Below, piece by piece: positions 23,238-39,313 of a stretch of DNA of 64,000 bases. Each line of letters begins with the position of its first letter. The first letter of the stretch is position 1. A program made the translations under genes and the position numbers. Below the pieces are notes generated by a model. That model worked only from the letters and a program-made list of their open reading frames with translations. It ran no database searches and was not told the origin of the DNA. The DNA comes from Gammaproteobacteria bacterium (GTDB lineage: Bacteria; Pseudomonadota; Gammaproteobacteria; UBA4575): assembly GCA_965243395.1 (NCBI GenBank), contig CBDEUS010000001.1, positions 256,001 through 320,000 of the forward strand, written 5' to 3'.

Positions 23238-23254
23238 TTGCTAAATAATGCATC

Positions 23255-24058
23255 GTGGGTAAGTGCATCGTCTGCAATAAATCAGCAGGACCCTTTTACT
23301 CTCTACATAAAGTTTGTTTACCTGTTTACCGGGATGCCCAGCAGTGTTTGAAAGCAAAATTATCTAGCTATCTTGAATCTGAAGAAGAGACATCAATAGC
23401 AGATATTAAAACATGTCGACCTTCTGAAGGTTTTTCGGAATATCACTTTAAACAAATATGCATTAAAGCCTGGCAAGAACATGCCAGAAATGTCGTAAGT
23501 CAAAAATCTTTAAATGTCCCTCTAACAAAGAAGCTTTTAAATTTTGCTAATGAGTTTGATATTTATAAAAATGAAACAGAACCTTATCTGATTTCACGCT
23601 TGATGAACATTGAATATTTGCAGGTCTTACAAAATGATCAGTCAATAGAATTTCACTCTAGCTTTGATATGACAGCGATAGAGCTTAATCAGGGTGAGCA
23701 TGCAATTTGGCAATTTGATGAGATAGATAAATCAGAACAGCATCAATATTCACAACAAAAGTCTTCGACGATATTTAATACGCTATTAGACAATTTATTC
23801 ATGAAGTCGCGATATAAACCCTTAGATGTGAAGCTAGAAAAGTCAGGAAAATTATTAATCACTAATCAAGCACTACATTATTTGTTAGATAACTCAGTAA
23901 AAGAAACAAAATTCTCAGATATTCACTCTGTAACGCCTATGAAAAATGGCATAAGAGTTCAAGCAGCAACAAGGAATGCATCACCAGATACCTACATAAC
24001 TGGAGATGGGCGTTTTACATATGCCTTGCTGCAATATGCGCAAGGTAAAGAAATCTAG
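23255..24058 (+). CDS. hypothetical protein (N-terminal CxxC, C-terminal PH-like region)
   Basis: CIVC...HKVC; GKLLITNQ..F..I. Confidence 0.6.
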   Translation: MGKCIVCNKSAGPFYSLHKVCLPVYRDAQQCLKAKLSSYLESEEETSIADIKTCRPSEGFSEYHFKQICIKAWQEHARNVVSQKSLNVPLTKKLLNFANEFDIYKNETEPYLISRLMNIEYLQVLQNDQSIEFHSSFDMTAIELNQGEHAIWQFDEIDKSEQHQYSQQKSSTIFNTLLDNLFMKSRYKPLDVKLEKSGKLLITNQALHYLLDNSVKETKFSDIHSVTPMKNGIRVQAATRNASPDTYITGDGRFTYALLQYAQGKEI

Positions 24059-24064
24059 ATAAGC

Positions 24065-24205
24065 TTAACCGCCAAATAGTTTTTTGAGCCAACCCATGAA
24101 GCCACCACTATCACTACTTTGTGACGATTTTGATTGGGTGGTTCGCCCGTTCTGAGCTTCATAGTGACGGCGTAAAACCGAATCAGTAGGAACTGCGTTA
24201 TCCAT
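24065..24205 (-). CDS. small hypothetical protein (46 aa)
   Basis: GGAG RBS; PTDSVLRRHY; amphipathic GFMGWLKKLFGG tail. Confidence 0.6.
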   Translation of the reverse strand: MDNAVPTDSVLRRHYEAQNGRTTQSKSSQSSDSGGFMGWLKKLFGG

Positions 24206-24450
24206 TTTTTCTCCTTTTGACCTTAGTTGAACAAGGATAGGTATTGTTATAGTTATGGAGACTGCGTGTACCTGGGTACAACTAGCGATTTTGTGCTTTG
24301 TTTGGCAAAGGGTCAACTAAGAATGCAGTACTATGCAAAGAAATTTGGTCTATTTTTGTAGTGGTTAAGTTTTAACTACTTGCTAATAAGCTGGTATTAT
24401 AATCAGGCATAAATTATTAAATAATCATAACGAGTTTAAGGATTTAACGG

Positions 24451-25077
24451 ATGAATAGAAAAGCGCTAGAAGTGCTGGCGGGTGGCAGATATCTCGAAGA
24501 CACGGTTATTCATGACAAGGACCGAGATCCAGAACTTGAAAGCCATGTTCGTAAAATGCTTGAGCTCATAGGTGAAGACCCAACTCGTGAAGGACTATTG
24601 GATACCCCAAAACGCGTTGCTAAAGCGATGCATTTTTTAACGGGGGGATATCAGCTTGGTGTAGAAGATGTTGTTCGTGAAGCATTGTTCGAAGAACAAT
24701 GTGAAGAAATGGTGATTGTTAAGGATGTTGAATTTTATTCTTTATGTGAACATCACATGCTGCCATTTTTTGGTCGTGCACATGTAGGCTATTTGCCAAA
24801 AAATAAAGTCATTGGTTTAAGCAAAATTGCACGTGTTGTGGATGTATTTGCAAGACGTTTACAAGTTCAGGAAAGACTCACTACGCAAATTGCTAGAGGA
24901 TTAATTGACGTATTAGATGCACATGGCGTTGCAGTTGTAATTGAAGCAAGTCACTTCTGTATGGTGATGCGCGGTGTGCAAAAGCAAAATAGTAAAACGG
25001 TTACCAGTTCTATGCTTGGGGCATTCCGGGATGATTCTCGTTCACGCTCAGAATTTATGGAGCATATTCGTGATTAA
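24451..25077 (+). CDS. folE: GTP cyclohydrolase I
   Basis: [47 protein letters not shown]. Confidence 0.97.
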
Positions 25078-25408
25078 CTGATCACATAGATGCGCGATTA
25101 TGACGCTCATCAGGAATGATGCATCCAATAAAAGTTAAGTCGGTTAAAAAAATATTCAGGTTGGAAATTTCAATTCAGATCTCTAAAGTGTTCGCAGTTA
25201 ATTAAATATTTCCATTATGGGAATAATTGCAAATTGTCCAAAGCAGACAAACGGTAGCTTTCAAAAAATTAATTTCACGAATAATGAGAGGTTTACCTCT
25301 CTTTTTTCCACTGCATAGAATCAATGTATAATTTAATCAAGATGAATGGATAAATATCTTTAATTCCCATACGTTAATTAACTAACACTGTACTGAGGTT
25401 TGTCTGCA

Positions 25409-25672
25409 ATGGAACTGCATGGTTGGAATAGTTGTAAACACATAACTCCAGAAATAAAACAGCAACCAAATAATAGAATCGCATCTGATCCTATTTGGTT
25501 ATTACTTGTAGATGGTACCGTTCTAGGTCATACGGTACGGTGTTTTTTAGATAGTAAAACAGAAATATCATGGGGCGGGATTAAAAAAGAGCTTGTTTCA
25601 CATTGGGCTTACAACATTCCTCCACCACTTCCTAATGAATTTACACCTAAAAAAATAAAGAAAACTGTTTAA
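25409..25672 (+). CDS. hypothetical protein, DUF551-like
   Basis: GWNSCKHITP...VSHWAYNIPPP resembles the DUF551 end motifs. Confidence 0.45.
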   Translation: MELHGWNSCKHITPEIKQQPNNRIASDPIWLLLVDGTVLGHTVRCFLDSKTEISWGGIKKELVSHWAYNIPPPLPNEFTPKKIKKTV

Positions 25673-25868
25673 GGTTTGATTGACGAGTGATAAATATAAA
25701 TATTTGGATCTCGCAGACATTGATAAGTTAAACTTAAGCTCAGAAGCGGGGATTAGGACTGTAGAAAAATTATAATTTCTTTGAAGTTTGGGAGAAGTGA
25801 TAATGTTTACTTAAGACTCAAAGTAGACATTTTCTGTAAGTGTTATGCCAACATAATATAGGTGCTTT

Positions 25869-26225
25869 ATGCGAAATATAGTAAATATTGTCGTTGTATA
25901 TATTACAGTCACAACTTTGATTATTGGCCAAACTATGCCAGCTTATGCAGGGCTTGTGGGTACAGATCAAATTTTACTAGAGGAAGTGACAAGTCAGGAT
26001 CGAGAAGTTCTGTATGAAATTTTCAATCGTAGCGATGCTCAGAAATTATTAGAAAAGAGTGGTGTTTCTAATAAACAAGCACATGAGCGAATAGCAGCTC
26101 TTACCGATGAGGAAGTAAGGATGTTCGCACAAAATTTTGAAGAACTTCCAGCAGGCGGTGTAGGCAATGCTGCGGCCATACTAATTTTAGTTTTGCTAAT
26201 AATTGTTCTTGCACTTGGAAATTGA
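25869..26225 (+). CDS. PA2779-family exported protein (copy 1)
   Basis: PAYAGLVGTDQIL, AHERIAALTDEE, LPAGG plus hydrophobic tail. Confidence 0.75.
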   Translation: MRNIVNIVVVYITVTTLIIGQTMPAYAGLVGTDQILLEEVTSQDREVLYEIFNRSDAQKLLEKSGVSNKQAHERIAALTDEEVRMFAQNFEELPAGGVGNAAAILILVLLIIVLALGN

Positions 26226-26394
26226 GAGCATTAGCGGATTTAGACATGTCCGCTCTCGAGCCAAAGTATGAGCACATAGAAGTGCGAACATGATGTACAT
26301 CGTGGACGATGTCTCTGGTTCTGTTCTTAATTAGAATGTCTGCTTTCGGCCCAAAGCGGACATAATTTGGTTTAATAATTCTTGGAATACTCCT

Positions 26395-26967
26395 ATGAAG
26401 CATCATGCCCTTGGTCTAGCGTTAATCTTAATTTTTACGATCCCAAAAATATGTTTAAGTGTAGATCAAGATTTCTATACAAACTTACGGTTAGAATTTT
26501 CTCAACGTGAAAATTATGATGCACTCTGGCATGTATCCTCGGAGCGGAAAGATATTTTTCAAGCTATTAAAGATAAAAACTATGAACTTACGGCAAGCAA
26601 GTCCAAAGTTTGGTTAGATAAATATCCAATCGATGCTGAAATTCATTATATTGCTGCACTTTCCAACGATAATTTAGGTAATCTTCAAGAATCAACTTAC
26701 CATTATTCGAATTTTTATGGTTTATTGAACTCTTTATTGCAATCAGGTGACGGATTATCATCAGAAACAGCGATACAAGTTATTTCAACAGCAGAGGAAT
26801 ATTTAGTAATCCAATTTATTGGTGGAAAATTTATTGAGCAATCTTTGATTCAAGGTAAATGCACTGCATATGATCAAATGGAGATTGAGATTAATGGCGA
26901 AAAGAGAAAAATGTATTTTGATGTAGCAATTCCTCTAACAGGAAAACCCGCCAAGCTTGATTGCTAA
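26395..26967 (+). CDS. exported DUF4919-like protein (cassette)
   Basis: signal peptide; SGDGLS.ETAIQVISTAEEY, YFDV. Confidence 0.7.
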   Translation: MKHHALGLALILIFTIPKICLSVDQDFYTNLRLEFSQRENYDALWHVSSERKDIFQAIKDKNYELTASKSKVWLDKYPIDAEIHYIAALSNDNLGNLQESTYHYSNFYGLLNSLLQSGDGLSSETAIQVISTAEEYLVIQFIGGKFIEQSLIQGKCTAYDQMEIEINGEKRKMYFDVAIPLTGKPAKLDC

Positions 26968-26981
26968 TTCAATTTTAATAA

Positions 26982-27082
26982 TTGACCGCTTTTGGCCGAA
27001 AGGAGACATAAAATGGTATGCAGTTGGTTGGTATCAACAAATTACAAACTTAAAATGTCCGGTATCGACCCGAAGCGGACAT
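26982..27082 (+). promoter_or_regulatory. 101-bp repeat-linker-repeat unit 1, putative promoter cassette
   Basis: 45-bp linker giving TTGGTA-N17-TAAAAT. Confidence 0.6.
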
Positions 27083-27130
27083 AAACTTGAATCATAATTA
27101 ATCTCTGTAAAGAAATCTGGAAGTTTTAAA

Positions 27131-27514
27131 TTGGCACATAATCTTGAAATAAATAAGCAGAATGCCATTGCATTTTATAAGACTGCCTATAACGGTGAAC
27201 CACGAAAAGCAGTTGAGCAATATGTCGGTGATGAATACATACAACACAATCCTGATGTAAAAGATGGTAAAGAGGGATTTATTGAATACTTTGAAGCAAT
27301 GGCAAGAGAGTATCCAAACAAAAGCATTGAATTTGTTCGCTCAATTGCAGAAGGCAACTTGGTGTCATTACACACTTACCAAACTTGGCCAGGAAATGAT
27401 GAATATGTAACGATGGATTTTTTCAGGTTTGATGATAATGGAAAAATTGTGGAGCATTGGGATTCAGTGCAACAGATACCAAACGAATCAGCGAATGATA
27501 ATAATATGTACTGA
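27131..27514 (+). CDS. SnoaL-like/NTF2-family protein (cassette)
   Basis: YIQHNP.V.DG.EGF, DFFRFDDNGKIVEHWD. Confidence 0.85.
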   Translation: MAHNLEINKQNAIAFYKTAYNGEPRKAVEQYVGDEYIQHNPDVKDGKEGFIEYFEAMAREYPNKSIEFVRSIAEGNLVSLHTYQTWPGNDEYVTMDFFRFDDNGKIVEHWDSVQQIPNESANDNNMY

Positions 27515-27575
27515 TAGTTGTTCTTTTTACATGTCCGTTATCGACCCAAAGCGGACATTTTTACGAAGTATAAAG

Positions 27576-28268
27576 ATGAAAAGTATAAGGAATATTTTAT
27601 ACAGTTTATCAATGGCTTTTGTTGTAAGTTGCGGTACTCCTGGTGTTGTTAATGAAATTAAAGTTGAACCTGTTAAAGAATCTAAGTGGGAGAATACTAG
27701 TTGGTCGCTAAATTTTATGTTTATTTGGCCAGTATATGAGAAAAAAGAACAAACTAATAAGGATTTGAGTGTTAGCGAAACAAATGAAAAAGAATTAGTG
27801 ATACACGGCCCGAAGCCAGCAAGTGAATTTGACCTAAGCGAAAATTTAAAAGCTGGCTTATCACGTTTTAGAGAAGATTTTTTCAATCAGCTGCCAATGA
27901 GTGCATCACTTAAAAAATCAGATGCTGATTACGATGTTGTTATAACTTTTACAATCAAAGACACACGTGGTCCTATTTATGTTGATGAAAAGGATTTAGA
28001 AATTGCAAAAAGAGCAGTAGATATAGATTTACTTACACCTATTGATCTTTTAGTAAAAGCTGACTTTGATGTGCTATATGATTTAACTACAAGCACAGGT
28101 GATGTGTTTCAAAAAAGCTACACTGTAATTGATTCAGTTGATCATCAGGAAAGTAGGTATGGAAGAAAATCAAATAGCCATATAGAACTATTGTCTAAGA
28201 AGATTTTTCGCAATCAAACTTTGAAAACTTCTAATAAATTTCTTGAAGAAGCTGCTAAAAAATTATAA
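27576..28268 (+). CDS. lipoprotein, hypothetical (cassette)
   Basis: MKSIR...FVVSC lipobox; start placed after the repeat. Confidence 0.7.
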   Translation: MKSIRNILYSLSMAFVVSCGTPGVVNEIKVEPVKESKWENTSWSLNFMFIWPVYEKKEQTNKDLSVSETNEKELVIHGPKPASEFDLSENLKAGLSRFREDFFNQLPMSASLKKSDADYDVVITFTIKDTRGPIYVDEKDLEIAKRAVDIDLLTPIDLLVKADFDVLYDLTTSTGDVFQKSYTVIDSVDHQESRYGRKSNSHIELLSKKIFRNQTLKTSNKFLEEAAKKL

Positions 28269-28272
28269 ATAA

Positions 28273-28373
28273 ATGTCCGCTATTGGCCGAAAGTAGTCAT
28301 AAAACAGGATGAACTAGGTTGGAATCAATAAGATGCAATCTTAAAATGTCCGGTAACAAACCATAGCAGACAT
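28273..28373 (+). promoter_or_regulatory. 101-bp repeat-linker-repeat unit 2, putative promoter cassette
   Basis: 45-bp linker giving TTGGAA-N17-TAAAAT. Confidence 0.6.
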
Positions 28374-28407
28374 TGCTTGTTTGCATCTTGTATGAGGTAT
28401 ATTCCAA

Positions 28408-28905
28408 ATGAATAAAGTAATAATACTTACGTTAATTATTTCAATATCGACTCTTTGTTTTGCAGACGAACTTACTCAGGAGAAGAGAGAAGATATTTTG
28501 TATTTATTAGAAAGATCAGGAAGTTTAGATGTTGGGTTAGAACTAGCTACAAATATTACCCAACAATTTAATCAAGTTTTAAGTCAAACAAATAAAGATA
28601 TTCCTAAGAATGTGTTCGTAGTTTTGCAAGAAGAATTAGAAATACTTTTGAAAGAAGAAACAGGCAAAAATGGGGGGCTTACTGATATTTCAATTAATGT
28701 GTATCACGATCACTTTACTCACGATGAAATAAAGCAACTCAATAAGTTCTATGATTCACCTATTGGTCAAAAACTGGCAGCTCGCACGCCCACGATAGCG
28801 AGAGAATCAATGATCGCAAGTCAGAAATGGGCTGAGAACATGCAGCCTTTGCTAGTAGATCGTGCGTTAACTGTTTTACGTTCTCAAGGCTATAATTTTG
28901 AATGA
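28408..28905 (+). CDS. exported DUF2059 protein (cassette)
   Basis: signal peptide; YHDHFTHDEIKQLNKFYDSPIGQK; stop codon lies inside the repeat. Confidence 0.8.
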   Translation: MNKVIILTLIISISTLCFADELTQEKREDILYLLERSGSLDVGLELATNITQQFNQVLSQTNKDIPKNVFVVLQEELEILLKEETGKNGGLTDISINVYHDHFTHDEIKQLNKFYDSPIGQKLAARTPTIARESMIASQKWAENMQPLLVDRALTVLRSQGYNFE

Positions 28906-28935
28906 CCGCTAACGATCCAAAGCGGACACTATTTA

Positions 28936-29247
28936 GTGAAATATCAACTTGTTATTCAATTTCCAGCTGAGTCTCAAAATGACTTCGACAATCTTATCGA
29001 AATTGAGAATGAATTAATAAAAAAGTTAACTGGTGACTCAGAAGTTGATGGGCATGATTTCGGAAGTGGAGAAATGAATATATTCATCTTCACGAATGAG
29101 CCTAATAAAACATTTAGTCATGTCATTACTATGTTAACAAGTAGAGATGAAAATATTTCGAATATGAAAGCTGGCTATAGAGTCATTGAAGATGAGGATT
29201 TCACTGTACTGTGGCCTAATGATCTAACAGAATTTGTAGTACGATGA
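28936..29247 (+). CDS. acidic hypothetical protein (cassette)
   Basis: VDGHDFGSGEMNIFIFT; flanked by repeats; stop inside the repeat. Confidence 0.75.
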   Translation: MKYQLVIQFPAESQNDFDNLIEIENELIKKLTGDSEVDGHDFGSGEMNIFIFTNEPNKTFSHVITMLTSRDENISNMKAGYRVIEDEDFTVLWPNDLTEFVVR

Positions 29248-29303
29248 CCGCTAACGACCCAAAGCGGATATTAGTTAATATTAATATCTAACAAAATACT
29301 ACT

Positions 29304-29645
29304 GTGTCTATTAAATTTCACTTCATGCTTGGATTGATATTATTGGCATTGTATGGATTATTTTTATTTAAAATTGAATCTATTCTTCCGTATTTTTATG
29401 ATGTATTAAGTGGAGATGTGCGCTCCAGTGGCCCTAGATACACCTATTGGGCCATTTGTATAGTTCTTGTTTTACCTTCAGTTTCAGTGTTCTTCTTTCT
29501 TTTTGGAAATAAAGTCAGTGATTGGTTATCTATGTACGTAAGACATGGTGATTTTTATACTAAAGGAGTGATTTATTTATTTGGATACATCAGTCTAATG
29601 TTTTCAGTAATAGTTATATTCTTATTTAAGTTAATAGAATATTAA
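29304..29645 (+). CDS. 3-TM membrane protein (cassette)
   Basis: three hydrophobic segments; flanked by repeats. Confidence 0.65.
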   Translation: MSIKFHFMLGLILLALYGLFLFKIESILPYFYDVLSGDVRSSGPRYTYWAICIVLVLPSVSVFFFLFGNKVSDWLSMYVRHGDFYTKGVIYLFGYISLMFSVIVIFLFKLIEY

Positions 29646-29678
29646 TATCTGCTATTGGTCGAAAGGAGACAAATTTAA

Positions 29679-29834
29679 ATGGCTAAAGATGAATCGTTAG
29701 AAAAGTTTGAAAAAGAATACGAAGAAACTCGTAAGAAAATTGAAGAGATTGAAGATAAGGCGCTTCGGAAAATTAGGAAAAAAGACCGATCAAACAGTAA
29801 CGGTGATAATGGAATTGGTGACCGCCCTGAATGA
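29679..29834 (+). CDS. 51-aa cassette ORF with sigma70 region 4.2-like helix (not in ORF track)
   Basis: MAKDESLEKFEKEYEETRKKIEEIEDKALRKIRKKDRSNSNGDNGIGDRPE; AGGAG RBS in the upstream repeat, TGA in the downstream repeat. Confidence 0.65.
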   Translation: MAKDESLEKFEKEYEETRKKIEEIEDKALRKIRKKDRSNSNGDNGIGDRPE

Positions 29835-29870
29835 CCGCTAATGGCCGAAAGCAGAAATTACACTAAATAA

Positions 29871-30284
29871 ATGTTCAATCTAAAAAATAAAATTTTCTTG
29901 ATTGCTCTGATCGTTGGATTAGTGCTTTTATTAATTGGTTGTTCAAAATCTCATGATCTCGATATAGATAAAATTACCTCAATTACTGTTACCCATCTTG
30001 GTGACAATGATTCATTAAATGATCTGATAGAGTTTTGTGTGGGGACGTCAGAACTATCCAATACTAAGAAATGGCTTAGACACAATAGGGACGATTGGAA
30101 ATCTCACATAGATACAGAACCAGCAGGAAAATTATTAATATCAGGTCACGGATTTAGGCTAAATGTTGGTGATTCGTGGGTGATAATGATTTGTGATCAT
30201 GATGACGGAGAAACTCATCGATTAACAAAAACTATATCTCCTGCGGAATTTAGTTATTTGGATAAATCTGAAAAATTACAATGA
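29871..30284 (+). CDS. lipoprotein, hypothetical (cassette)
   Basis: LLIGC lipobox; stop inside the repeat. Confidence 0.7.
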   Translation: MFNLKNKIFLIALIVGLVLLLIGCSKSHDLDIDKITSITVTHLGDNDSLNDLIEFCVGTSELSNTKKWLRHNRDDWKSHIDTEPAGKLLISGHGFRLNVGDSWVIMICDHDDGETHRLTKTISPAEFSYLDKSEKLQ

Positions 30285-30381
30285 CCGCTTATGGCCGAAA
30301 GCAGTCATAATTTAAGGTGAACTAGGTTGGATTCAATAAAATACCGGCACAAGATGTTTGGCATTGACCCAAAGATGACAT
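30281..30381 (+). promoter_or_regulatory. 101-bp repeat-linker-repeat unit 3 (more degenerate)
   Basis: 45-bp linker aligns without gaps to units 1 and 2; TTGGAT-N17-CAAGAT. Confidence 0.5.
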
Positions 30382-30482
30382 GATTTATGCCATTCAGTAT
30401 TTAGCTGATTGGTTGGAATAAAATTTAGTGCCAATATCATTATCTTCGCACATAGGGGAAATTCACATATCGGGAGTATTCC

Positions 30483-31148
30483 ATGAAAACTAAGTTAGCT
30501 TTTGTAATTGTATTATTACTTGGTGGTTGCCAAACACCAAATGTTCCAGATGATTTTAGCTTTGAGCCAAGCGCTGATAAAAATACAGGAATTATAATTG
30601 GTTCAGTGACTCAAAATAATGATGTTTCGAATGCTACTGTGGCAGATTTCAGAATTGATCATCAATTAAAAAAAGATACAAAACTTTTGTACTCAATGAA
30701 CACTAATGAGCTGTTGGGCGGATTTGCAAATAAGTTTGGATTTGAAGAAGGAAATCTTGGTGGACGTATGTTCGTTGTGGAAGTTGAAGAAGGAGATCAC
30801 CAGTTAGATTACTGGTCGATAAATCACAACAATAACTACCTCATTATTTATCCAAAAGTACCGCCGCCAAAACTTGAATTTAGTTTAGAACATGGACAAA
30901 TTATGTATATTGGTAATTTTCATATAGATATCGTAGCAGAAAAGAATTTTTTAGGCGCGTTATTGCCCCTAGGTGGAGAGCCATCAATAAATAATAAATA
31001 TCCTAGAGATATAGAATTAATATATGAAAAATACCCTCAGCTTAAGGATAAAGAAATAACCATAAATGTCTTACATGAAGGCACATGGATAAACGAGATT
31101 CATGAAGAGGAAGAATTAGAAATACCTACATCCAAAGAACAGTCATGA
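30483..31148 (+). CDS. lipoprotein, hypothetical
   Basis: LLGGC lipobox; GGGAG RBS. Confidence 0.75.
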   Translation: MKTKLAFVIVLLLGGCQTPNVPDDFSFEPSADKNTGIIIGSVTQNNDVSNATVADFRIDHQLKKDTKLLYSMNTNELLGGFANKFGFEEGNLGGRMFVVEVEEGDHQLDYWSINHNNNYLIIYPKVPPPKLEFSLEHGQIMYIGNFHIDIVAEKNFLGALLPLGGEPSINNKYPRDIELIYEKYPQLKDKEITINVLHEGTWINEIHEEEELEIPTSKEQS

Positions 31149-31828
31149 AAAATATCATTATTTTTTTAGCATGTATTTTATTGGTCAAATTCGCTTATGC
31201 AAATGAGTCGAATCGAGATATTCCAGACCCTCAAAAAATTATAGATGCATATAATAATGCCGAGTGCTGCATTTTCATTGATCAACTTAAACCTACAAAG
31301 CTAGATAAACGGACCAGACTAGATTTATATCTCTATGAGTCAAAAAATCTTCTTGAACTATCTACTGGACCAACTTTTGCAGCCCTTGTGGAAATTCCAC
31401 TAAGTAATAAAAAAGAGAGATACGAAGTCGAGACTAACGTTATGCATGTAGGTGATGATTTATATGTATATTTTCCTTATGTAGCATTTTTGAATGATGA
31501 ACTAAAGTTATTAGGCACATCTGATTTCACACATAGTAATTATAGTGGTAAGTCTTTATTTCAACCAACAGGAATTTTGAATTTTAATTTCAATCTTGAT
31601 CCAAATTTAAAAGGCGATGAAGCAGTAAGATATCTCTTAATCTACACACGTAAAAAACATTTTTCACAAAATACTACAGATCAATTGAAAGAAGAATCTC
31701 GAAATGTCAGATTGAAAGAAATATCTCTAGAGTATGCAAACACTGTAAGCGAATACATTCAAAGAGACTTGCTTTATGGATTGCCTGGAGGAAAGGTGAG
31801 CGTATCAAATAAAGGCAAGTTTTTTTAA
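31145..31828 (+). CDS. exported hypothetical protein (weakly MalM-like)
   Basis: signal peptide AYA; ATGA overlap with the upstream gene. Confidence 0.6.
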   Translation: MKNIIIFLACILLVKFAYANESNRDIPDPQKIIDAYNNAECCIFIDQLKPTKLDKRTRLDLYLYESKNLLELSTGPTFAALVEIPLSNKKERYEVETNVMHVGDDLYVYFPYVAFLNDELKLLGTSDFTHSNYSGKSLFQPTGILNFNFNLDPNLKGDEAVRYLLIYTRKKHFSQNTTDQLKEESRNVRLKEISLEYANTVSEYIQRDLLYGLPGGKVSVSNKGKFF

Positions 31829-32025
31829 GTCAATAAATATCTAATTATAATTTGAATTGATTGGCCGCTTACGACCCAAAGCGGACATCCGACTATTGCC
31901 ATTCGAGCTATAAAATTATCCATACACACCATTTTGCTTACATTGAAGAATTGTTGGAGTATGCTGAATTCTCAATAATTTAAAAATAATTAGTATTAAT
32001 AAACTAAATGTCGCAAGGATAAGAT

Positions 32026-32409
32026 ATGCGGGTTCTTCTAAATAAAGTAGTCATATTTTTATTAGCATTAACGCTTTTGATTAGTCAGTCAATGCCAGCC
32101 TATGCGGGTCTTGTAGGCACGAAACAATTAATCGATCAGCAACTCTTAGAATTAGATCGCGAAACATTACTCAATGTTTTTGAACGAGATGAAGCACATT
32201 CACTACTGCAAAAGCACGGAATAACGCATAAGCAGGCACAAGATCGAGTCAATGCAATGACAGATCAGGAGATTTATGTATTTGTCCAGAAGTTTGAGGA
32301 ACAACAAGCTGCAGGAAGCGTTGGTATTGCTGCAGCTGTGTTAATCATAGTTTTACTCTTTATTGTTTTAGACCTGTCCGGAAAAACAGATGTGTACAAA
32401 GGAATTTAA
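32026..32409 (+). CDS. PA2779-family exported protein (copy 2)
   Basis: MPAYAGLVGTKQLI, AQDRVNAMTDQE, LDLSGKTDVY. Confidence 0.8.
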   Translation: MRVLLNKVVIFLLALTLLISQSMPAYAGLVGTKQLIDQQLLELDRETLLNVFERDEAHSLLQKHGITHKQAQDRVNAMTDQEIYVFVQKFEEQQAAGSVGIAAAVLIIVLLFIVLDLSGKTDVYKGI

Positions 32410-32429
32410 TCAAGTTTTAGGAGCTATTC

Positions 32430-33020
32430 ATGCTATTTAACAATTCAAATCGAATACATAAAATATTTATTAGAAGTGTTTTATTAGGTTTGGGGATAAT
32501 TTTAATTAGCACTTCTGTTTATAGTAAACCACCACCTTGGGCACCTGCACATGGTTATCGAGATAAACATGGACATAAATATTATGATCATCATTATGCG
32601 GATGTCATCGGTATTTTTGATGGAAAATGTAAGTACGAGAAAATAGGTACAGTTGTCGGTGGTGCAACGGGTGCTGTTATCGGTTCTAAGGTTGTGGATA
32701 AAGATGATCGAGTAATTGGCGTGATTGCCGGCACGATCATTGGTGCCATTATTGGTAAGACAGTAGGTCGTGTATTAGATGAGCGTGATCGACACTGCAC
32801 TGCACAAGGATTGGAGTATGCTCGAAGTGGCCAATCTATTCACTGGCATAATCCAAATTCGAATATTGATTATGAAGTCACTCCCTTTAGGTTTTATCAA
32901 AGTAATGGTTTGGATTGTCGCATGTTTTCCACCAAAGCTAGGTTAGCCGACGGTAAGACGACGGAGTATGAGAGTGATGCCTGTTTACATGATGATGGCA
33001 TCTGGAGGACTGTGTATTGA
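32430..33020 (+). CDS. glycine-zipper RT0821/Lpp0805-like surface antigen
   Basis: PPPWAPAHGYR, GTVVGGATGAVIG, LDERDRHC, W.NP, AC..DG.W. Confidence 0.8.
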   Translation: MLFNNSNRIHKIFIRSVLLGLGIILISTSVYSKPPPWAPAHGYRDKHGHKYYDHHYADVIGIFDGKCKYEKIGTVVGGATGAVIGSKVVDKDDRVIGVIAGTIIGAIIGKTVGRVLDERDRHCTAQGLEYARSGQSIHWHNPNSNIDYEVTPFRFYQSNGLDCRMFSTKARLADGKTTEYESDACLHDDGIWRTVY

Positions 33021-33237
33021 AATTCATTATGAGTACGTATGAATAATATTCTTACCTATTTCGATACGCGAGAGATAATGATTTCACTCAGAATTTGTTT
33101 TTTAATGGCTTCTATTTAACTTGTAAGCTAATCAAAACCGTTCATCGTAGGATTCGCTCCGAATTTGAGTGAATATTACAAAATAGTCTCAAGAAACAAT
33201 CAACTAGTTAAGTTACAAATATAGTAATGGAATACTA

Positions 33238-33663
33238 ATGAGCAAATTGAATACCGTCATTGAATTAATAAAAAATAAATCTCATTCTCTGACTGGAATA
33301 TTTGAAAAAGGTGTTGATCATTGTCGCCATAAGCTGGATCGTGAATCCACCATTGATCCTGAAGCAAACGAATCGGCATTGACAAAGGCTGTAGATAAAT
33401 GCAGGGAAGAAATAGAAAGATCTGATCAAAAAAATAAAATTCCTTCGCCAAAATATTTTGAACATGTTGCGATGCTTTCTAGACAAACAAGAAATTATCA
33501 AAACGAGATCGCTATTTGTGAATTGTATCTTGAGACACTACAAAAGCATTCATCGAAGTATAAATTTTCAAAAAGGAAAATAGAGAAAGAAATTCGGCCG
33601 CTTTGTGAAACAATGATGATGCGAATACATAATGCAAAAACATTAAGTGAGAAACAAATATAA
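33238..33663 (+). CDS. hypothetical protein
   Basis: 141-aa ORF coupled to the next gene. Confidence 0.55.
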   Translation: MSKLNTVIELIKNKSHSLTGIFEKGVDHCRHKLDRESTIDPEANESALTKAVDKCREEIERSDQKNKIPSPKYFEHVAMLSRQTRNYQNEIAICELYLETLQKHSSKYKFSKRKIEKEIRPLCETMMMRIHNAKTLSEKQI

Positions 33664-33896
33664 TGACACGAAAAATAAAAAAAGAACCTGTTAAAATGCT
33701 TCAAGAGGTTGATACAGAAATGATCCATATAAAAGGGTGGATCGCAGATAAAGAATTTAAAGATAATATTAATAATTCACATCTTACCTATCAGAAGGTT
33801 TACGACTACGCTAAAAAGCTATCACTTGAATGTAAAGTCGCAATTAGATCAGTCGCTGACGGCGACACTCATATCATGAAGGTGTATAAAAAGTAA
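33663..33896 (+). CDS. hypothetical protein
   Basis: 77-aa ORF overlapping the previous stop. Confidence 0.5.
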   Translation: MTRKIKKEPVKMLQEVDTEMIHIKGWIADKEFKDNINNSHLTYQKVYDYAKKLSLECKVAIRSVADGDTHIMKVYKK

Positions 33897-34045
33897 TCCG
33901 AATTGAATTACTATTAATCTCAAACAAATTGTTTGCATTAACAGAATGCTAAAAATTCATTTTATATTTTTATTAAATTAATAAGTTTTTAGCGGGTAAG
34001 GGCCTAATACACAATCCTGAATAATTAGTTAAGTTACGCTCGGTT

Positions 34046-35248
34046 CTATTTGACAACGCTGCCGAGATCGCTTGCCCATTTTATTGCTTGCAGATAAGCT
34101 TTTCGATATTCGCTATGATCGATCAAATGCATAAGTGTATCCCAGTCACCTTGTTCATAATATTTTATATTCTGAAGCACCTCTCCCATTTTTCCAGTAT
34201 GAGATAATAAGGCTAAACTTACTTCTTCTGTTAAAGGTAATGTTTCAAGAATTTCTTCTAGTGACATATCCATTAATGCATCTAAAATAGAGAATAACCC
34301 AACTGAGAAATATTGATCAGAAACTCCATTAGGATCAGATTTCCCAAGAATTTCTGCCATCTTTGCTCTCATCATTCCAGTGAGCATTAGTTCTTTAGGC
34401 TTCTCGTCTGATAAGCGTAACATCAACATTAAACTTGCCCATTTTCTAACTTCATCCGTACCTAGTAATGTTAGAGCATGTTTAATAGATTCAATTTTTA
34501 TACGCAATGCATAAAAGGCTGAATTCATATAACGAAGTAAGTGATAAGCAAGTGTAGGATCACGTCCAATAAGGTTTTCAAGCTCATCAATATTAACGGA
34601 TGGGTTCTGAAGTTCTGAAATTAATTTGAGAACAATCATTCTATTACCTTCAATTCGTTTCCCTATAAACATTTGAGGCTTACAAAAAAAGAAACCTTGA
34701 AAATAATCGAACCCTAGTTCTTTACATTGTTCAAACTTTTCATGAGATTCAACACGTTCAGCTAAAAGCTTTATCTTGTGACTACGCAATACACTAACGT
34801 GCTTCTGTAAGTCAATATCACTTAAAATACTGACATCTAGTTTTACAAATTGAGAAACTTTTAATAAAGGATCGAACTTTGGGGTATAAATAAATTCGTT
34901 CAGTGCAATTTGAAATCCAGCACGTGATAAGTTGCCTAACCCGGCGATTAGTTCATCGTCAATTACATCATTTTCAAGTACCTCTAACACTATCTGCTCA
35001 TGCATTTGTGGCAAGGGTAGCTCACCAATCAAAAACCCACGTGTCATATTTATAAATGCTAGCTTTGTACCTACAATATTTTCTAGACCGATATCTATTA
35101 ATGCACTAATAATGACATCAGTGGTTGCTTCATCACCATCAACAATGTTTGCATTATTTGAAGCTTTTTTACGATACAAAAGCTCATATGCAAATACATT
35201 CAGTTGACGATCATAGATGGGTTGACGTGCAAGAAATATTACTGCCAT
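34046..35248 (-). CDS. EAL-HDOD domain protein (YuxH-like)
   Basis: FLARQPI, YELLYR, LAERVE, YFQGFFF, LLRYMNSA, GLFSILDALM. Confidence 0.9.
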   Translation of the reverse strand: MAVIFLARQPIYDRQLNVFAYELLYRKKASNNANIVDGDEATTDVIISALIDIGLENIVGTKLAFINMTRGFLIGELPLPQMHEQIVLEVLENDVIDDELIAGLGNLSRAGFQIALNEFIYTPKFDPLLKVSQFVKLDVSILSDIDLQKHVSVLRSHKIKLLAERVESHEKFEQCKELGFDYFQGFFFCKPQMFIGKRIEGNRMIVLKLISELQNPSVNIDELENLIGRDPTLAYHLLRYMNSAFYALRIKIESIKHALTLLGTDEVRKWASLMLMLRLSDEKPKELMLTGMMRAKMAEILGKSDPNGVSDQYFSVGLFSILDALMDMSLEEILETLPLTEEVSLALLSHTGKMGEVLQNIKYYEQGDWDTLMHLIDHSEYRKAYLQAIKWASDLGSVVK

Positions 35249-35585
35249 TTTTATTTAGCTTAATAAAGGGTTTAAATTGCAAAATTAGTCACAACTTAAT
35301 AAACGGCATAATATGGATATTCTTTACGTTTTATTTGATTGAAATGAACCCATTCTGACAATTTGGGTATCTGAGCAGTCATTCTCTCGCAGAAGACTTA
35401 ATGAATAAATTATTCTAAGGCGAAAAAACACTTCAAATGCTTATTTCTGAACAATTTTTCAGATTATATTGTAGGCAAAAGTACTCTATTGAAGACTATA
35501 ATAAAGTTGCGAGAGGTATTAGATAGTGAATGACCGCTATTGGCCGAAAGCGGACATAATTAGGAAAAATCTAAAGGAGCTTTAG

Positions 35586-35852
35586 ATGCGTTATATAGCT
35601 GGAGTCTTAATCCCTGTAGTGCTTCAATGTTTGTTTGTATTTATTATTATTGAAATGAACACGGGGAATGGTTCATGGATTGGATTAGGTGCACTGTTAA
35701 TAGGTATGTTTGCAATCCCTGCAACGGCTATTATTAATTTTCTCTATATAAAAACAAATAAAGGCCGAAGCACTGTTTCGCTAATGTCACGGTGTTTTTT
35801 AATCGCAATAATAGCGCCTGTAATAATTCTATTATTATTGCTGGTTGGGTAA
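35586..35852 (+). CDS. small membrane protein (cassette)
   Basis: AAGGAG RBS; three hydrophobic segments. Confidence 0.7.
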   Translation: MRYIAGVLIPVVLQCLFVFIIIEMNTGNGSWIGLGALLIGMFAIPATAIINFLYIKTNKGRSTVSLMSRCFLIAIIAPVIILLLLLVG

Positions 35853-36032
35853 CAATAAATGTCCGCTATTGGCCGTAAGGAGCGAAAACAAGGCCACTGA
35901 GGGAGATATTCAGGTTGGAATCTTTTGAACACATATAAAGTGTAAATTCAGTGGCATTATTTGGAAAAAGAAGAGTGAAACATATTTGAAGAGCATTTTA
36001 CAAAGTGTAACTAATTTATAAAGAGGTTGTGT

Positions 36033-36638
36033 ATGTTTAAATGGAGTTATCTACTTATATTAACATTTATTATTTTAGCTGGTTGTGCATCAACATCAAA
36101 TCAACCAGTCTTTGAATTTGATAGTGGTGATGCAAAAGGTGTATTTGTACCAGTTCGTGTTCACATTAATAGAAATGTACCTGTTGCCCGTTTTTATGAA
36201 TCAAGATTAATCGAAGTTAAAAATACGTTAAAAAGGAGTGGTATGTTTTTAGAGGTAGGATCGCATGTCGATTCTCCTTATGTGTTAGATTTACAGTTAG
36301 AGCGAGGTTCTAATGATAATGCGGTTGATACAACAGCACAGCTACTTTCTGCTGCAACTTTATTTTTACTTCCCTCTAAGGTAAATGGTTATCACATATT
36401 AAAAGCTGACTTATATATCGATGGAAGCTTGCTAAAGAGTTACGAATATAAAGATGAATATGATGAGACTATTAGTATTTATAACTACAATGAGGCTGCC
36501 AGTAATGATGGTGATGAATTTGTCTCCATCCGAAATGTGGTGAATAAACTATTAAAAGGTTTAGATGAAGATGATGTTATTGAAAGATATATCGATAACT
36601 CAAATCAACAAGATACTCCTAAAGAGTATGATATCTAA
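36033..36638 (+). CDS. lipoprotein, hypothetical (cassette)
   Basis: ILAGC lipobox; LSAATLFLLP. Confidence 0.75.
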   Translation: MFKWSYLLILTFIILAGCASTSNQPVFEFDSGDAKGVFVPVRVHINRNVPVARFYESRLIEVKNTLKRSGMFLEVGSHVDSPYVLDLQLERGSNDNAVDTTAQLLSAATLFLLPSKVNGYHILKADLYIDGSLLKSYEYKDEYDETISIYNYNEAASNDGDEFVSIRNVVNKLLKGLDEDDVIERYIDNSNQQDTPKEYDI

Positions 36639-36722
36639 TAAGGTAAAACGTTTGCTATAGACCCAAAGCGGACATGCTAAGCATCATTAATTCATGTATT
36701 GATAAACCTAGAGTAACTTTTT

Positions 36723-37085
36723 ATGGGAAATACCGTTTGGGTGTTAAGCGAAAATAGTGATGAGGATGATTGGGATCACTCATTTATTTTAATAAATGAG
36801 CAGTCACTCGACAAACTCGCAGACCAATTAAGTGTTAAGAAACTAAGTGATTTATACGATCATTCAATTTTGGCAGAAGAATATGGAGAGGATATTGAGC
36901 CAAACTATATAATTCCAGACGATTTAGAATCTGTATTAAATCCTCTGATTACCGCTATTCGTAATGGAGATGCAGGTAAGCTAAATGGTGATACTGAAAT
37001 CATTGAAGAACTTGAAGATTGTTTAGAAAAAGTTTTAAACGCCAAGAGTCGCAGCTCAAAAGTACGACTAGCAATTGTGCCCTAA
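36723..37085 (+). CDS. acidic hypothetical protein (cassette)
   Basis: 120 aa, D/E-rich, flanked by repeats. Confidence 0.7.
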   Translation: MGNTVWVLSENSDEDDWDHSFILINEQSLDKLADQLSVKKLSDLYDHSILAEEYGEDIEPNYIIPDDLESVLNPLITAIRNGDAGKLNGDTEIIEELEDCLEKVLNAKSRSSKVRLAIVP

Positions 37086-37166
37086 TTATCCTTTGCGAAT
37101 GTTCACAATTGACCGTTAAGAGGCATTTAGCGAGAAGCTTTATCGTTCGGAAAATATAAACTAATC

Positions 37167-37400
37167 ATGAAAAAGCTATTTTGTTTTATGTTTATCGGCA
37201 TTGGTGCATTGTTAGTATTTGCAGCAGGTACTATTGGGCTTGGTTTTGGGGCTATATATTTAATGGGTGCAATAGGTACTGGCGGTCGTGAGGGTGTTGG
37301 AGAGCTAGTTACTGTTGTAATGATAGGTGTTGCTGGGTTCGTAGTTGGATATTTTCTGATTCGTATCGGAAGAGGGCTTGGTGTTAGCAATACCCAATGA
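37167..37400 (+). CDS. small 2-TM protein (cassette)
   Basis: Gly-rich hydrophobic helices, flanked by repeats. Confidence 0.6.
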   Translation: MKKLFCFMFIGIGALLVFAAGTIGLGFGAIYLMGAIGTGGREGVGELVTVVMIGVAGFVVGYFLIRIGRGLGVSNTQ

Positions 37401-37493
37401 AGGTGTTTCAAAAAATAATTAATTTCTATTTACGATCAAAGCGGACATTATATTTAATCATTCAGGGCATTTACTTTTAAACTCGATTCTCTA

Positions 37494-38753
37494 CTACGTA
37501 TCTCTTTCAATAATCATAGCTGCCGCCGTCCCACCTGCGCCACAAATACTAATTAAACCTAAGTGCGAATTTCTGCGCTTCATTTCGTTCGCTAATGTGG
37601 TTGTAATGCGAATACCTGTTGCAGAAAAAGGATGACCTATTGCTATTGAGCTACCTAAAGGGTTTAATTTTTCTTGATCGACTTTACCAATAGCTGGCTC
37701 TTTCCAACCTTGTTCCCATGCTTTTAGATTACAAGCAATTTGTCCTGCAAATGCCTCGTGCATTTCAATAATGTCAAAGTCCGATAGTGAAAGTGAATTA
37801 CGTTTTAGTAATCTTGGCACAGCAAGTGCAGGGCCCATTAACAATCCTTCTCTTGGTTCTATGCCAACAAACTCGAAATCTTTTACATATGCGAGAGGTT
37901 CAAAACTTTTGTTTTTCGCATACTGTTCTGACATTAATAGTATAGAGGCTGAACCATCAGTCAGCGGACTAGAATTTCCTGCCGTGATCGTACCTTTTGA
38001 ACTACGATCAAATACTGGTTTAAGTTTGGCAAGCTTATCTATAGTAGTATCAGGACGAATAAATTGATCGGTTTCAATTCCATCCAAAGGATCTATTTCC
38101 TCAAGTAGGCGACCATCTTGACTTGCTTGGTATGCATTCATATGACTTCGGTAGGCAATTTCATCTTGTGCATCTCGAGAAATGTTCCATTCTTTTACCA
38201 TTAGTTCTGTATGTTCACCCATTGACAATCCAGTAGATGGTTCTTTTATACCAGGTGAAGTTGGTTTGAAATGTCGTGGTCGTAATTTTAATAATTGACG
38301 TATACGCTTTGTATTCGTTTTTTCTGAAAATGCATCTAGAAAAATACGACTTGCCGAACGGCTAAATAAAAGCGCCGGATTTGACATCGATTCCACACCT
38401 CCAGCAATACCGGCTTCAGATCTTCCAGTTGATATTGAATCATAAATGGTTCGGATTGCAGAAAGTCCAGTAATGCAATTGTTTGTTATCGTCAATGCCT
38501 GAAGCTGTGCTGGCAGTTTATTAGCTAAAACAATCTCTCTTGCCAGATGGGGGATCCTTGGATCGACAACAACAATGCCGTAAACAAATTCTTGCAAATC
38601 ATCTTTATTGACATTCGTTTTGTTCAGCAGGCCTCGAACAGAATGTCCAGATAGTTCAAGAGCTGTGTAATGTTTGAAAACTGTGCCCGCGCGAACAAAT
38701 GGTGTACGAATACCATCAATAATTGCAACACGCTTTGAAGGATTAATATTCAC
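37494..38753 (-). CDS. acetyl-CoA C-acyltransferase (thiolase, FadI-like)
   Basis: DGIRTPF, NNCITG, TAGNSSPLTDG, HEAFA, GHPFSATG, CGAGG. Confidence 0.9.
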   Translation of the reverse strand: MNINPSKRVAIIDGIRTPFVRAGTVFKHYTALELSGHSVRGLLNKTNVNKDDLQEFVYGIVVVDPRIPHLAREIVLANKLPAQLQALTITNNCITGLSAIRTIYDSISTGRSEAGIAGGVESMSNPALLFSRSASRIFLDAFSEKTNTKRIRQLLKLRPRHFKPTSPGIKEPSTGLSMGEHTELMVKEWNISRDAQDEIAYRSHMNAYQASQDGRLLEEIDPLDGIETDQFIRPDTTIDKLAKLKPVFDRSSKGTITAGNSSPLTDGSASILLMSEQYAKNKSFEPLAYVKDFEFVGIEPREGLLMGPALAVPRLLKRNSLSLSDFDIIEMHEAFAGQIACNLKAWEQGWKEPAIGKVDQEKLNPLGSSIAIGHPFSATGIRITTTLANEMKRRNSHLGLISICGAGGTAAAMIIERDT

Positions 38754-39235
38754 TACTCGCTTCCATCATTAACATTGAAAATCAATCGTATAAAAATCAT
38801 GAAGTGCGTAACTAAAAGAAAAGGTACTAAAAATGTGGGTATGTACCAGTTTGCGCCAAACATTGATATTACCTCTGCGTGACGCAATGCATTTAGTAAA
38901 TCTATGAATCCAACTATATTAAATATCCAAACGATAACCAATGCGAATGGCCATTTATAATAGAGAAAACATAACGCAACGAATGCAAGTATACCTGCTG
39001 CTAAATCGCCGTAGGCAGCTGGAACTGCAAAATTACTGGGCAACGTTTGTAATGAAAGCCCAGGAACAAGAAAGCTCATACCTATATGTCGAAACGTATG
39101 AGGTAGTGTAAGCCAGAATAATGCTGTTTTGAGCGGTTGTTTATTCAGCCAAGGCGAAGCAATCCATTTCATCAGGAAACTGAACACTATTATGCTTAGC
39201 AAAAACTGTAAAAGGAATATTGCTTGTGTGTCCAT
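38753..39235 (-). CDS. membrane hypothetical protein
   Basis: PHTFRHIG, AAYGDL, IPTFLVP.LLVTH; multiple TM segments. Confidence 0.75.
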   Translation of the reverse strand: MDTQAIFLLQFLLSIIVFSFLMKWIASPWLNKQPLKTALFWLTLPHTFRHIGMSFLVPGLSLQTLPSNFAVPAAYGDLAAGILAFVALCFLYYKWPFALVIVWIFNIVGFIDLLNALRHAEVISMFGANWYIPTFLVPFLLVTHFMIFIRLIFNVNDGSE

Positions 39236-39267
39236 CTCGCACCTCTTTTTATTTTAGTGAATTAATT

Positions 39268-39296
39268 AAAAAAAACGGCCTCTTAATCGAGGCCGT
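39268..39296 (-). terminator. intrinsic terminator after the YHS gene
   Basis: ACGGCCTC-loop-GAGGCCGT followed by a T-run on the minus strand. Confidence 0.75.
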
Positions 39297-39313
39297 AATG
39301 AGAGGTCACTTAC

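Follow-up and report, generated by a model that had tools for sequence, protein, structure and literature searches.

Between folE and a thiolase gene, in a 64,000-nt stretch of DNA from a gammaproteobacterium of the UBA4575 lineage (assembly GCA_965243395.1, contig CBDEUS010000001.1, positions 256,001 to 320,000 of the forward strand; we call this whole stretch the window), lies an array of mostly single, short genes separated by copies of a 28-bp imperfect palindrome. This palindromic site looks like part of an undescribed integron-like gene-shuffling system. The reading that we tentatively favour, at a little short of an even chance, is that the 28-bp elements are orphaned recombination sites, each with two 11-bp arms around a 6-bp centre (11-6-11), which bound gene cassettes.

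The array between folE and the thiolase gene

Scanning the 64-kb window for ATGTCCGCT-N10-AGCGGACAT with up to three mismatches gave 12 matches, all on the + strand and spanning 26336-36675; dinucleotide shuffling predicts 0.01 matches, and 12 were reached in none of 100 shuffles. With a profile made from copies across the genome, the count in the window is 14. The first-pass annotation of this DNA had counted about 20, and at 14 of its 20 positions there are indeed copies with at most four stem mismatches to the consensus, while the remaining six (25803, 26246, 29645, 30354/35859, 37099 and 37421) are degenerate or half copies with 5-7 stem mismatches. Its claims of a shared polarity and of repeat-free housekeeping flanks hold, as all 20 copies point the same way and no pattern match occurs in the window flanks. 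The loop that it gave, WWYGRCCSAA, is valid as a consensus but splits into two types, A (WAYGACCCAA) and B (WWTGGCCGAA). Intervals mostly contain a single short, unrelated open reading frame (ORF) on the + strand, as it had described, with three exceptions: the interval 31861-35530 holds five ORFs, the interval 30483-31828 holds two, and two cassettes (25869-26225 and 32026-32409) both encode DUF6627 proteins. No match to Rfam release 15 was found at E ≤ 1 on the window array or on 7 other loci.

The window's genome, G000, is a 2.58-Mb assembly in 2 contigs (C1 and C2), 100% complete; other G numbers denote relatives. The left flank comprises the core gene folE (GTP cyclohydrolase I; 24451-25077, on the + strand, as are all features below unless stated; PF01227, E 1.9e-78), conserved in 14/14 congeners searched, a copy of a second, genus-specific palindromic repeat that we call 'X' (25073-25151; its core at C1:281108 is window position 25108), and a conserved 90-aa ORF without Pfam match (25400-25672). 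Homology to the closest genome, G012, in which syntenic DNA is ~84-88% identical, reaches 25733. The array opens with a degenerate A-like site (25803-25830; 5 stem mismatches, 9/9 positions pairable, two changes compensated), followed by a DUF6627 cassette (25869-26225; PF20332, E 4.9e-22). The unit homologous to 25853-26266 occupies another array in G012, and this homology stops at a half site consisting of left arm and centre only (26246-26273; 7 stem mismatches). Then come a type B site (26336-26363; 1 mismatch, 40.7 bits), a DUF4919 cassette (26395-26967; PF16266, E 8.5e-14) and a composite junction (26982-27082) made of a B site (26982-27009), a 45-nt conserved spacer and an A site (27055-27082), with a sigma-70-like TTGGTA-17-TAAAAT at 27028-27056. 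A SnoaL-like cassette (27131-27514; PF12680/PF07366), a type A site (27531-27558; 1 mismatch) and a 230-aa cassette ORF without Pfam match (27576-28268) lead to a second composite junction (28273-28373; B site 28273-28300, spacer, degenerate A site 28346-28373), which carries the promoter-like TTGGAA-17-TAAAAT at 28319-28347. The DUF2059 cassette beyond it (28408-28905; PF09832) ends in a TGA (28903-28905) inside the next site, of type A (28902-28929; 2 mismatches). Stops also lie within the next site for the cassettes of 103 aa (28936-29247; followed by a type A site at 29244-29271 with 2 mismatches), 51 aa (29679-29834; type B site at 29831-29858 with 3 mismatches) and 137 aa (29871-30284; third composite junction at 30281-30381, with B site 30281-30308, spacer and degenerate A site 30354-30381). 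The first and second of these enclose a 113-aa hydrophobic cassette ORF (29304-29645) and a degenerate type B site found by the profile (29645-29672; 5 stem mismatches).

Two overlapping ORFs of 221 and 227 aa, with a sub-threshold MalM match only, share the next interval (30483-31828), which is closed by a type A site (31861-31888; 2 mismatches). The five ORFs that follow are a two-gene unit identified by Pfam as DUF6627 plus a glycine-zipper/17-kDa lipoprotein (32026-33020), two ORFs of 141 and 77 aa without Pfam match (33238-33896), and an EAL-HDOD gene on the - strand (34046-35248; PF00563 and PF08668), which is present genus-wide in differing arrays. The unit 31912-33020 is found again in G003 at 75% identity, and the block 33958-35550 is 92% identical to part of G012 contig C5, where it has sites on both sides and other neighbours. 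This block ends at a type B site that is also a homology breakpoint (35530-35557; 1 mismatch): compared with the G012 orthologue, its left arm is identical and its right arm matches at 7/11 positions. The array continues with an 88-aa membrane-like cassette (35586-35852), a type B site with a decayed right arm (35859-35886), a 203-aa cassette (36027-36638), a type A site (36648-36675; 3 mismatches), a 120-aa cassette (36723-37085), which is a solitary 729-bp insert in G012, a degenerate site (37099-37126; 7 stem mismatches) and a 77-aa cassette (37167-37400), whose unit (37151-37450) has an 80%-identical counterpart in G002. A right-arm-only site (37421-37448) ends the array, and the core thiolase gene on the - strand (37494-38753; PF00108/PF02803) forms the right flank. 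The two DUF6627 paralogues each have an N-terminal hydrophobic segment. Logan contigs of four DNA runs over 22000-41000 are short, low-depth metagenome contigs only, and their joints are uninformative because the joint sides are at most 32 nt, about the length of the repeat itself.

Site anatomy and variation across genomes

The array is not unique. The genome holds 93 copies of the repeat at E ≤ 0.05, 76 of them scoring at least 20 bits, at 20 loci, 14 of which have two or more copies and some of which lie between core genes. Neighbouring copies within 3 kb are co-oriented in 64/68 pairs, and whole arrays face either way. Scatter in both orientations among core genes, which the annotation had regarded as telling against a gene-capture system, is therefore seen at the level of arrays and at some core-gene loci, but not inside arrays, which are internally co-oriented. 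Most copies (67/76 strong ones) come after a same-strand gene, and the repeat-to-repeat spacing ranges from 73 to 3669 bp, with ORFs in the longer intervals. The 77 site-adjacent ORFs (median length 153 aa) fall into 76 families, which excludes tandem duplication as the source of the arrays; outside the sites, the sole paralogous pair has no DNA in common. Most copies face the same way as replication, while two large arrays (26 copies) face against it, so that the strand bias is not strict. The GC-skew minimum near C2:445000 was taken as the origin; a dif-like site (C1:959290-959317), one arm of which matches the XerD type perfectly, lies near the cumulative GC-skew maximum at about C1:920000. 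The assembly was probably left in two contigs because one 318-bp tandem repeat makes up both contig ends (C1:1272649-1279210 and C2:1292331-1299313), oppositely oriented at the two.

The two centres define two classes of site with different places around genes. Type A, with the centre CGACCC, accounts for 37 of the 93 genome copies and type B, with TGGCCG, for 42; 14 are unclear. Type B sites sit a median of 5 nt past the stop of a same-strand ORF, and in 10/36 cases the TGA stop is part of the ATGA that opens the site, while type A sites sit a median of 22 nt ahead of the next start codon. The commonest unit is accordingly A-ORF-B: among 41 typed ORF-containing intervals, 20 are A..B, 10 B..B, 6 B..A and 5 A..A. 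At many junctions a single 28-bp element separates a stop codon from the next ORF. Where sites form close pairs, B precedes A in 6/9, and the doublets are direct, not inverted. The 45-nt spacer of the close B-A pairs is conserved genome-wide and carries a sigma-70-like TTGGAA-17-TAAAAT, the last two bases of which open the A site; promoter-like matches are not enriched across the region as a whole (44 versus 59.5 expected). Sequence is also conserved for ~25 nt beyond each hairpin (GGAATCAAT... ahead of A and ...AGTAGTAGGTTGG past B), and the flanks of the repeat are A/T-rich with no fixed tetranucleotide.

Is the element a hairpin, as first described? The stem positions do not co-vary: pair 6-23 is CG in 28 copies, CA in 22, TG in 19 and TA in 1, and pair 4-25 is AA in 32, TA in 28 and AT in 7. 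Since the mismatches are uncompensated, the element is better read as a double-stranded protein site of 11-6-11 layout than as a folded hairpin. This layout agrees with the column conservation and with alphaproteobacterial copies, which have perfect 11-mer arms on either side of TGACCC or TGGCCC, and it is from such sequence comparison that we propose it. Nor does the repeat behave as an intrinsic terminator with a G+C-rich stem and a T run, as only 2 terminator-like sites in 25000-38000 coincide with it (26336, and 30281 on the - strand).

The first-pass expectation that gene content varies in repeat-bounded units is borne out by comparison with relatives. G012 shares the left flank of the window array as far as 25733 and, on a different G012 contig, the right flank from position 37494 onwards: downstream of folE, G012 has a different 14-kb array, and next to its thiolase flank lies the orthologue of an edge of a further G000 array (C2:543256). 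The slot between ubiE and DUF971-hslU has five different contents in five genomes, with A-ORF-B units in 3/5 and, in three genomes, a B site whose distance from DUF971 is constant at 49 nt, and contents likewise vary between genomes in the slot after the response regulator at C1:422916. At least 7 blocks, the genus-wide EAL-HDOD gene included, lie in different arrays in G000 and G012. One 1.4-kb block ends within sites at both ends, in G000 and G012 alike. At 3 of 4 boundaries, one of the 4 being uninformative, the arm on the side of the shared block matches at 10-11/11 positions and the outer arm at 5-7/11. The one clean filled/empty pair is the 120-aa window cassette, which is the 729-bp insert of G012 at a place where G000 is continuous.

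The repeat extends well beyond the genus. A 17-mer of it occurs in 27/56 genomes of the window's family, rarely in the small-genome genera, and in 13/14 congeners, G014 being the one without it. A degenerate 26-mer scanned against one-genome-per-species contigs found at least 119 stretches. Among the matches listed are Pseudolabrys and other Xanthobacteraceae, other Alphaproteobacteria, Beta- and Gammaproteobacteria (Lysobacter, Rhodanobacter and Pseudomonas among the latter) and a few other phyla, with carrier GC contents of 36-68%. At the 119 listed loci of other taxa adjacent copies are co-oriented in 173/197 pairs, and B-A pairs recur. Perfect 7-bp stems 10 nt apart number 201 in a Pseudolabrys metagenome-assembled genome (MAG), 48 in an alphaproteobacterial MAG, 32 in a betaproteobacterial MAG, 24 in Lysobacter soli KCTC 22011 and, on a Pantoea plasmid, 8, and the reversed-pattern control gave 0 matches in every genome or plasmid counted. 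That the sequence of the motif is kept across classes and GC contents implies a sequence-specific protein. Cassette content tracks the host: Pseudolabrys cassettes are paralogous ABC substrate-binding proteins, while those of G019 encode a metal ATPase, a ligand-gated channel, an adenosine deaminase, a sulfatase and a subtilase.

A variant of the repeat is present on 110 PLSDB plasmids, 54 of Pantoea and 31 of Klebsiella among them; a plasmid search with the window's own composite junction gave no match. On Pantoea vagans pPV989-508 (NZ_CP028350.1; locus L203, 1795-8966) the sites have one polarity and the intervening genes run both ways, which argues for a role at the level of DNA and not of RNA. 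The variant on this plasmid, often paired with a third loop type (ATRAGCGAGA), separates single genes, and one gene between sites is, by description only, a FosA-like fosfomycin-resistance gene. The enterobacterial variant has partial matches in 1364/5426 E. coli genomes. Viral contigs gave 20 matches, mostly near contig ends and probably in host flanks.

Two further features accompany some arrays. In three unrelated genomes arrays start ~0.1-1 kb from the 3' side of a tRNA gene: tRNA-Met in G000 (C1:232100-232177; locus L136, 4101-4177), tRNA-Leu on a metagenome contig (L198, 1444-1532) and a tRNA in Lysobacter soli (L020, 3659-3731). The 'X' repeat, ~75 nt with two small GGGA-loop palindromes, is found in 12/14 congeners versus 1/26 other relatives. 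Its distance upstream of the first A site is ~80 nt for the arrays at C1:28674, C1:41292 and C2:247855 and 47 nt for that at C2:999516, and X also forms inverted pairs around some cassettes; its other copies in G000 are at C1:28594, C1:41212, C2:247775, C2:275858, C2:594122, C2:904339 and C2:999563.

Recombinases in carriers of the repeat

What enzyme would act on such sites? The first-pass annotation had found the window free of recombinases, and indeed none is encoded there or adjoining the array. It had further proposed a gene-capture or shuffling enzyme acting in trans; capture or shuffling by a dedicated enzyme is a deduction, and neither XerC and XerD nor the three P4-like integrases of G000 track the repeat. 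We considered each known family in turn. XerC and XerD are unlikely partners, since the arms of the dif candidate differ from those of the repeat; each gene lies ~3 kb from a single cassette, which we take as coincidence because both are in conserved core contexts. The P4-like integrase of G000 is present in 7/41 relatives only. About 12 kb from a P4-like integrase, ~19 tRNA genes (ARAGORN numbering), several 77-nt tRNA-Leu genes among them, are clustered at C2:141264-143608. Integron integrases (IntI; TIGR02249 above cut-off) occur in 6/41 relatives (G014, G015, G025, G035, G039 and G040), and in neither G000 nor the 13 repeat-bearing congeners; no repeat lies within 18-20 kb of them in G014 and G015, where they are at C20:40615-41559 (L208) and C29:7056-7997 (L207), respectively. 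G014 is both the sole member of the genus without the repeat and the sole one with IntI, and this, together with the absence of repeats near IntI, rules against IntI as the partner. The Y1 transposase domain (Y1_Tnp, PF01797) of REP-associated tyrosine transposases (RAYT; REP, repetitive extragenic palindrome) does not track the repeat either: it is absent from G000 and occurs in 1/14 congeners, though 13/14 have the repeat, and in 1/5 distant carriers. Serine recombinases and IS110 were rejected as partners as well, since G000 has neither. Clustering 2673 ORFs from the 119 listed loci of other taxa revealed no recombinase family in common; the families found were ABC_sub_bind, kinases, ABC ATPases, EAL/GGDEF, LysR, SDR and sulfatase.

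The best candidate enzyme, judged by sequence and position in related genomes, is a divergent Xer-like tyrosine recombinase family that we name IntH. Its members are 378-379 aa long in G019, where two paralogues bracket an array (L176, 2460-3599 and 7696-8832); further copies are in G003 (L184, 452-1579), where a site abuts the gene, and at L198, 1666-2802. IntH has a weak PF00589 score and comes closest, below threshold, to the models of XerA, XerC and XerD; among solved structures, an archaeal XerA-like protein is nearest to it. The catalytic R..HxxR..H..Y is invariant in the 3 intact copies. A site lies within 350 nt of 5/9 full or near-full copies and 1/7 fragments, and IntH adjoins tRNA-Leu(UAA) at 3 loci. 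Among 56 family genomes, IntH or its remnants are present in 8 of the 16 repeat-rich ones (at least 20 matches of the 17-mer) versus 1 of the 40 others; intact genes are confined to G003 and G019, and elsewhere there are many stop-riddled fragments. A recombinase beside arrays thus exists in some relatives, as the first-pass annotation had anticipated, but its link to the sites is putative and G000 lacks it.

Known systems, competing explanations and the favoured reading

Integrons, including clusters of attC sites lacking integron integrases (CALINs), and Xer-type modules are the nearest analogues of the arrays, and the element does not conform to either. With integrons and CALINs it shares co-oriented arrays of mostly single, unrelated small genes with one imperfect-palindrome family between them, stops that often lie within the site, site-bounded variation among relatives, and persistence of arrays without a local integrase. 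However, attC sites are ~57-141 bp long with RYYYAAC/GTTRRRY cores, while the present site is 28 bp long and its consensus columns lack those cores, which, with the absence of IntI from repeat-bearing congeners, agrees with the first-pass view that it is not attC. Besides, attC sites conserve structure rather than sequence, whereas this repeat keeps its sequence across classes; it has two subtypes with 5' and 3' roles, and many small arrays (20 loci) without IntI in place of one platform. The dif site, the attachment sites of integrative mobile elements exploiting Xer (IMEX) and the pdif modules of Acinetobacter plasmids have the 28-bp length of the present element and the 11-6-11 layout proposed for it, form modules of one or a few genes and need not encode their own recombinase. 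Yet the arms differ from the host's dif candidate, so the repeat is no Xer/dif site for host XerC and XerD, and pdif modules alternate in orientation whereas the present sites are direct, in chromosomal arrays and of two centre types. CRISPR was excluded on first pass and remains so: the intervals of 73 to 3669 bp, the longer ones with ORFs, are not the ~30-40 bp non-coding spacers of such loci. Two less close parallels deserve mention. Engineered heterospecific lox/FRT pairs, which allow exchange of the segment that they flank, likewise combine common arms with differing asymmetric centres on either side of a gene; they are artificial, while here we have a candidate natural system in which A..B is the commonest but not the sole arrangement. 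IS200/IS605 and palindrome-associated transposable elements (PATEs) have same-strand end hairpins with conserved sequence beyond each, but the absence of a Y1 transposase and of conserved pairing, with stem changes left uncompensated, sets the present element apart from them.

The main rival explanation, which we consider unlikely but by no means negligible, is a RAYT-less family akin to REP and bacterial interspersed mosaic elements (BIMEs), that is, short extragenic palindromes piling up in weakly constrained accessory regions. Their role would be structural, as mRNA-end protectors, weak terminators, insulators, or gyrase or nucleoid-protein sites, and repeat-bounded differences would stem from ordinary homologous recombination between dispersed copies. 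Much of the anatomy is compatible with this: the copies are extragenic, sit at the 3' ends of genes and number in the tens to hundreds as REPs do (93 here, up to 201 with perfect stems in the Pseudolabrys MAG), they decay with no sign of recent mobility, no enzyme is encoded nearby or in G000, and the two subtypes in mosaic junctions with a conserved spacer recall the Y and Z REPs with spacers of E. coli BIMEs. REP/BIME-RAYT systems are, however, defined by inverted doublets (REPINs) and a conserved head tetranucleotide, and the present doublets are direct and lack that tetranucleotide. Y1_Tnp is missing from G000 and 13/14 congeners, in keeping with the first-pass judgement that this is no canonical REP, and REPs sit between conserved genes whereas these copies bracket variable ones. 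Uncompensated stem changes, a polarity independent of gene direction on the Pantoea plasmid and the resemblance of only 2 window sites to intrinsic terminators do not fit a structural role; for the sequence to be identical across classes and GC contents, a specific, conserved partner is needed; and 28 imperfect base pairs would probably be a poor substrate for repeated homologous excision and re-insertion.

The same conservation, with inverted, conserved half-sites and uncompensated changes, could mean that a dimeric DNA-binding protein with sequence specificity uses the element as an operator or roadblock in regulating or silencing accessory genes. Type A would then overlap the promoter-like spacer and the transcription start, as the start of the A site at the last two bases of the -10-like hexamer in composite junctions suggests, and type B would block upstream read-through. 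This appears improbable, as it leaves unexplained the homology breaks inside sites, the differing cassettes at fixed hot spots and the strict internal polarity of arrays; there is no overall enrichment of promoter-like matches in the region, and no regulator was identified. We regard as very improbable that the cassettes are non-autonomous single-strand transposons, with hairpin A at the left end and hairpin B at the right end of an IS200/IS605-like cargo element, and with an unrecognised transposase, HUH or otherwise active on single-stranded DNA, to move it. Related same-strand hairpins do flank a cargo gene, A..B being the commonest arrangement, ~25 nt are conserved beyond each, and most copies are co-oriented with replication. 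On the other hand, G000 and most carriers have no Y1 transposase, the stems do not keep their pairing, two cassettes have one site in common at many junctions, and the two large arrays run against replication.

Taken together, the cross-class conservation, uncompensated arms, two centre types, gene-independent polarity, and stops and breaks inside the site call for a specific DNA-acting protein, and since simple tyrosine-recombinase sites have such a layout, we favour orphaned, cassette-bounding recombination sites. The element would be a double-stranded site with two inverted 11-bp arms and an asymmetric 6-bp centre in two versions, CGACCC-like A and TGGCCG-like B. Single genes or small groups lie between sites, with B abutting the stop, A just upstream of the next ribosome-binding site and start, and the B-spacer-A junctions bringing a promoter-like spacer. 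Like sites in direct repeat would recombine, so that cassettes are excised, inserted and exchanged, with breaks that are site-specific rather than homologous. Such recombination would explain the internal co-orientation of arrays, the variation at hot spots and the moved cassettes with homology breaks inside sites. The enzyme would have been lost from the window's genome, leaving orphan arrays comparable to attC clusters without integrase; in related genomes IntH (~378 aa, often by tRNA-Leu(UAA)) is the best candidate.

Several observations weigh against this reading. Although 100% complete, G000 lacks IntI, Y1 transposases, serine recombinases and IS110; its only tyrosine recombinases are XerC, XerD and three P4-like integrases, and its dif candidate (C1:959290) is unrelated in sequence to the repeat arms. 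IntH is missing from G000, from 8/16 repeat-rich family members, from the 119 listed loci of other taxa and from 5 distant genomes or plasmids, and therefore cannot be a universal partner; an unrelated P4-like integrase shows the same repeat-rich skew, so the association of IntH is confounded. Homologous recombination between dispersed repeats would also put breakpoints within sites, and the segregation of arms was seen at only the few boundaries given above. Instead of two sites, X-like sequence and a possible 6-bp duplication border the 729-bp insert of G012, and the degenerate copy at 25803 has compensated changes. Relocated blocks are 78-92% identical versus 84-88% for syntenic flanks; being as diverged as the core genome, the relocated cassettes show nothing of recent movement, and the sole paralogous cassette pair offers no shared DNA outside the sites.

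We rate site-bounded gene cassettes as a known kind of arrangement and this site family, which has no Rfam entry, as new. Searching by sequence string and keyword, through listings and the openings of abstracts, found nothing on the motif, which is not proof that it is unpublished. A broader view, which we hold to be doubtful, is that the arrays represent a second, unnamed cassette system of Proteobacteria beside integrons, with A/B heterospecific sites bracketing single genes, Xer-like tyrosine recombinases (IntH in this lineage, others elsewhere) that would excise, insert and swap cassettes at many small hot spots of chromosomes and plasmids, and mostly orphan arrays, the present one included. 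Its range would take in this small-genome gammaproteobacterial family, soil Xanthobacteraceae, and Pantoea and Klebsiella plasmids. If the repeats belong instead to a RAYT-less REP family, that family would be conserved to an unusual degree across classes and have strict 5' and 3' roles around genes, and a conserved host partner would be called for. If they are recombination sites, integron-independent cassette exchange would structure the accessory genome of many Proteobacteria, large Pantoea and Klebsiella plasmids included. The 28-bp element would then be a simple annotation marker for variable gene slots, and there would be a natural heterospecific site pair and a new recombinase family to seek.

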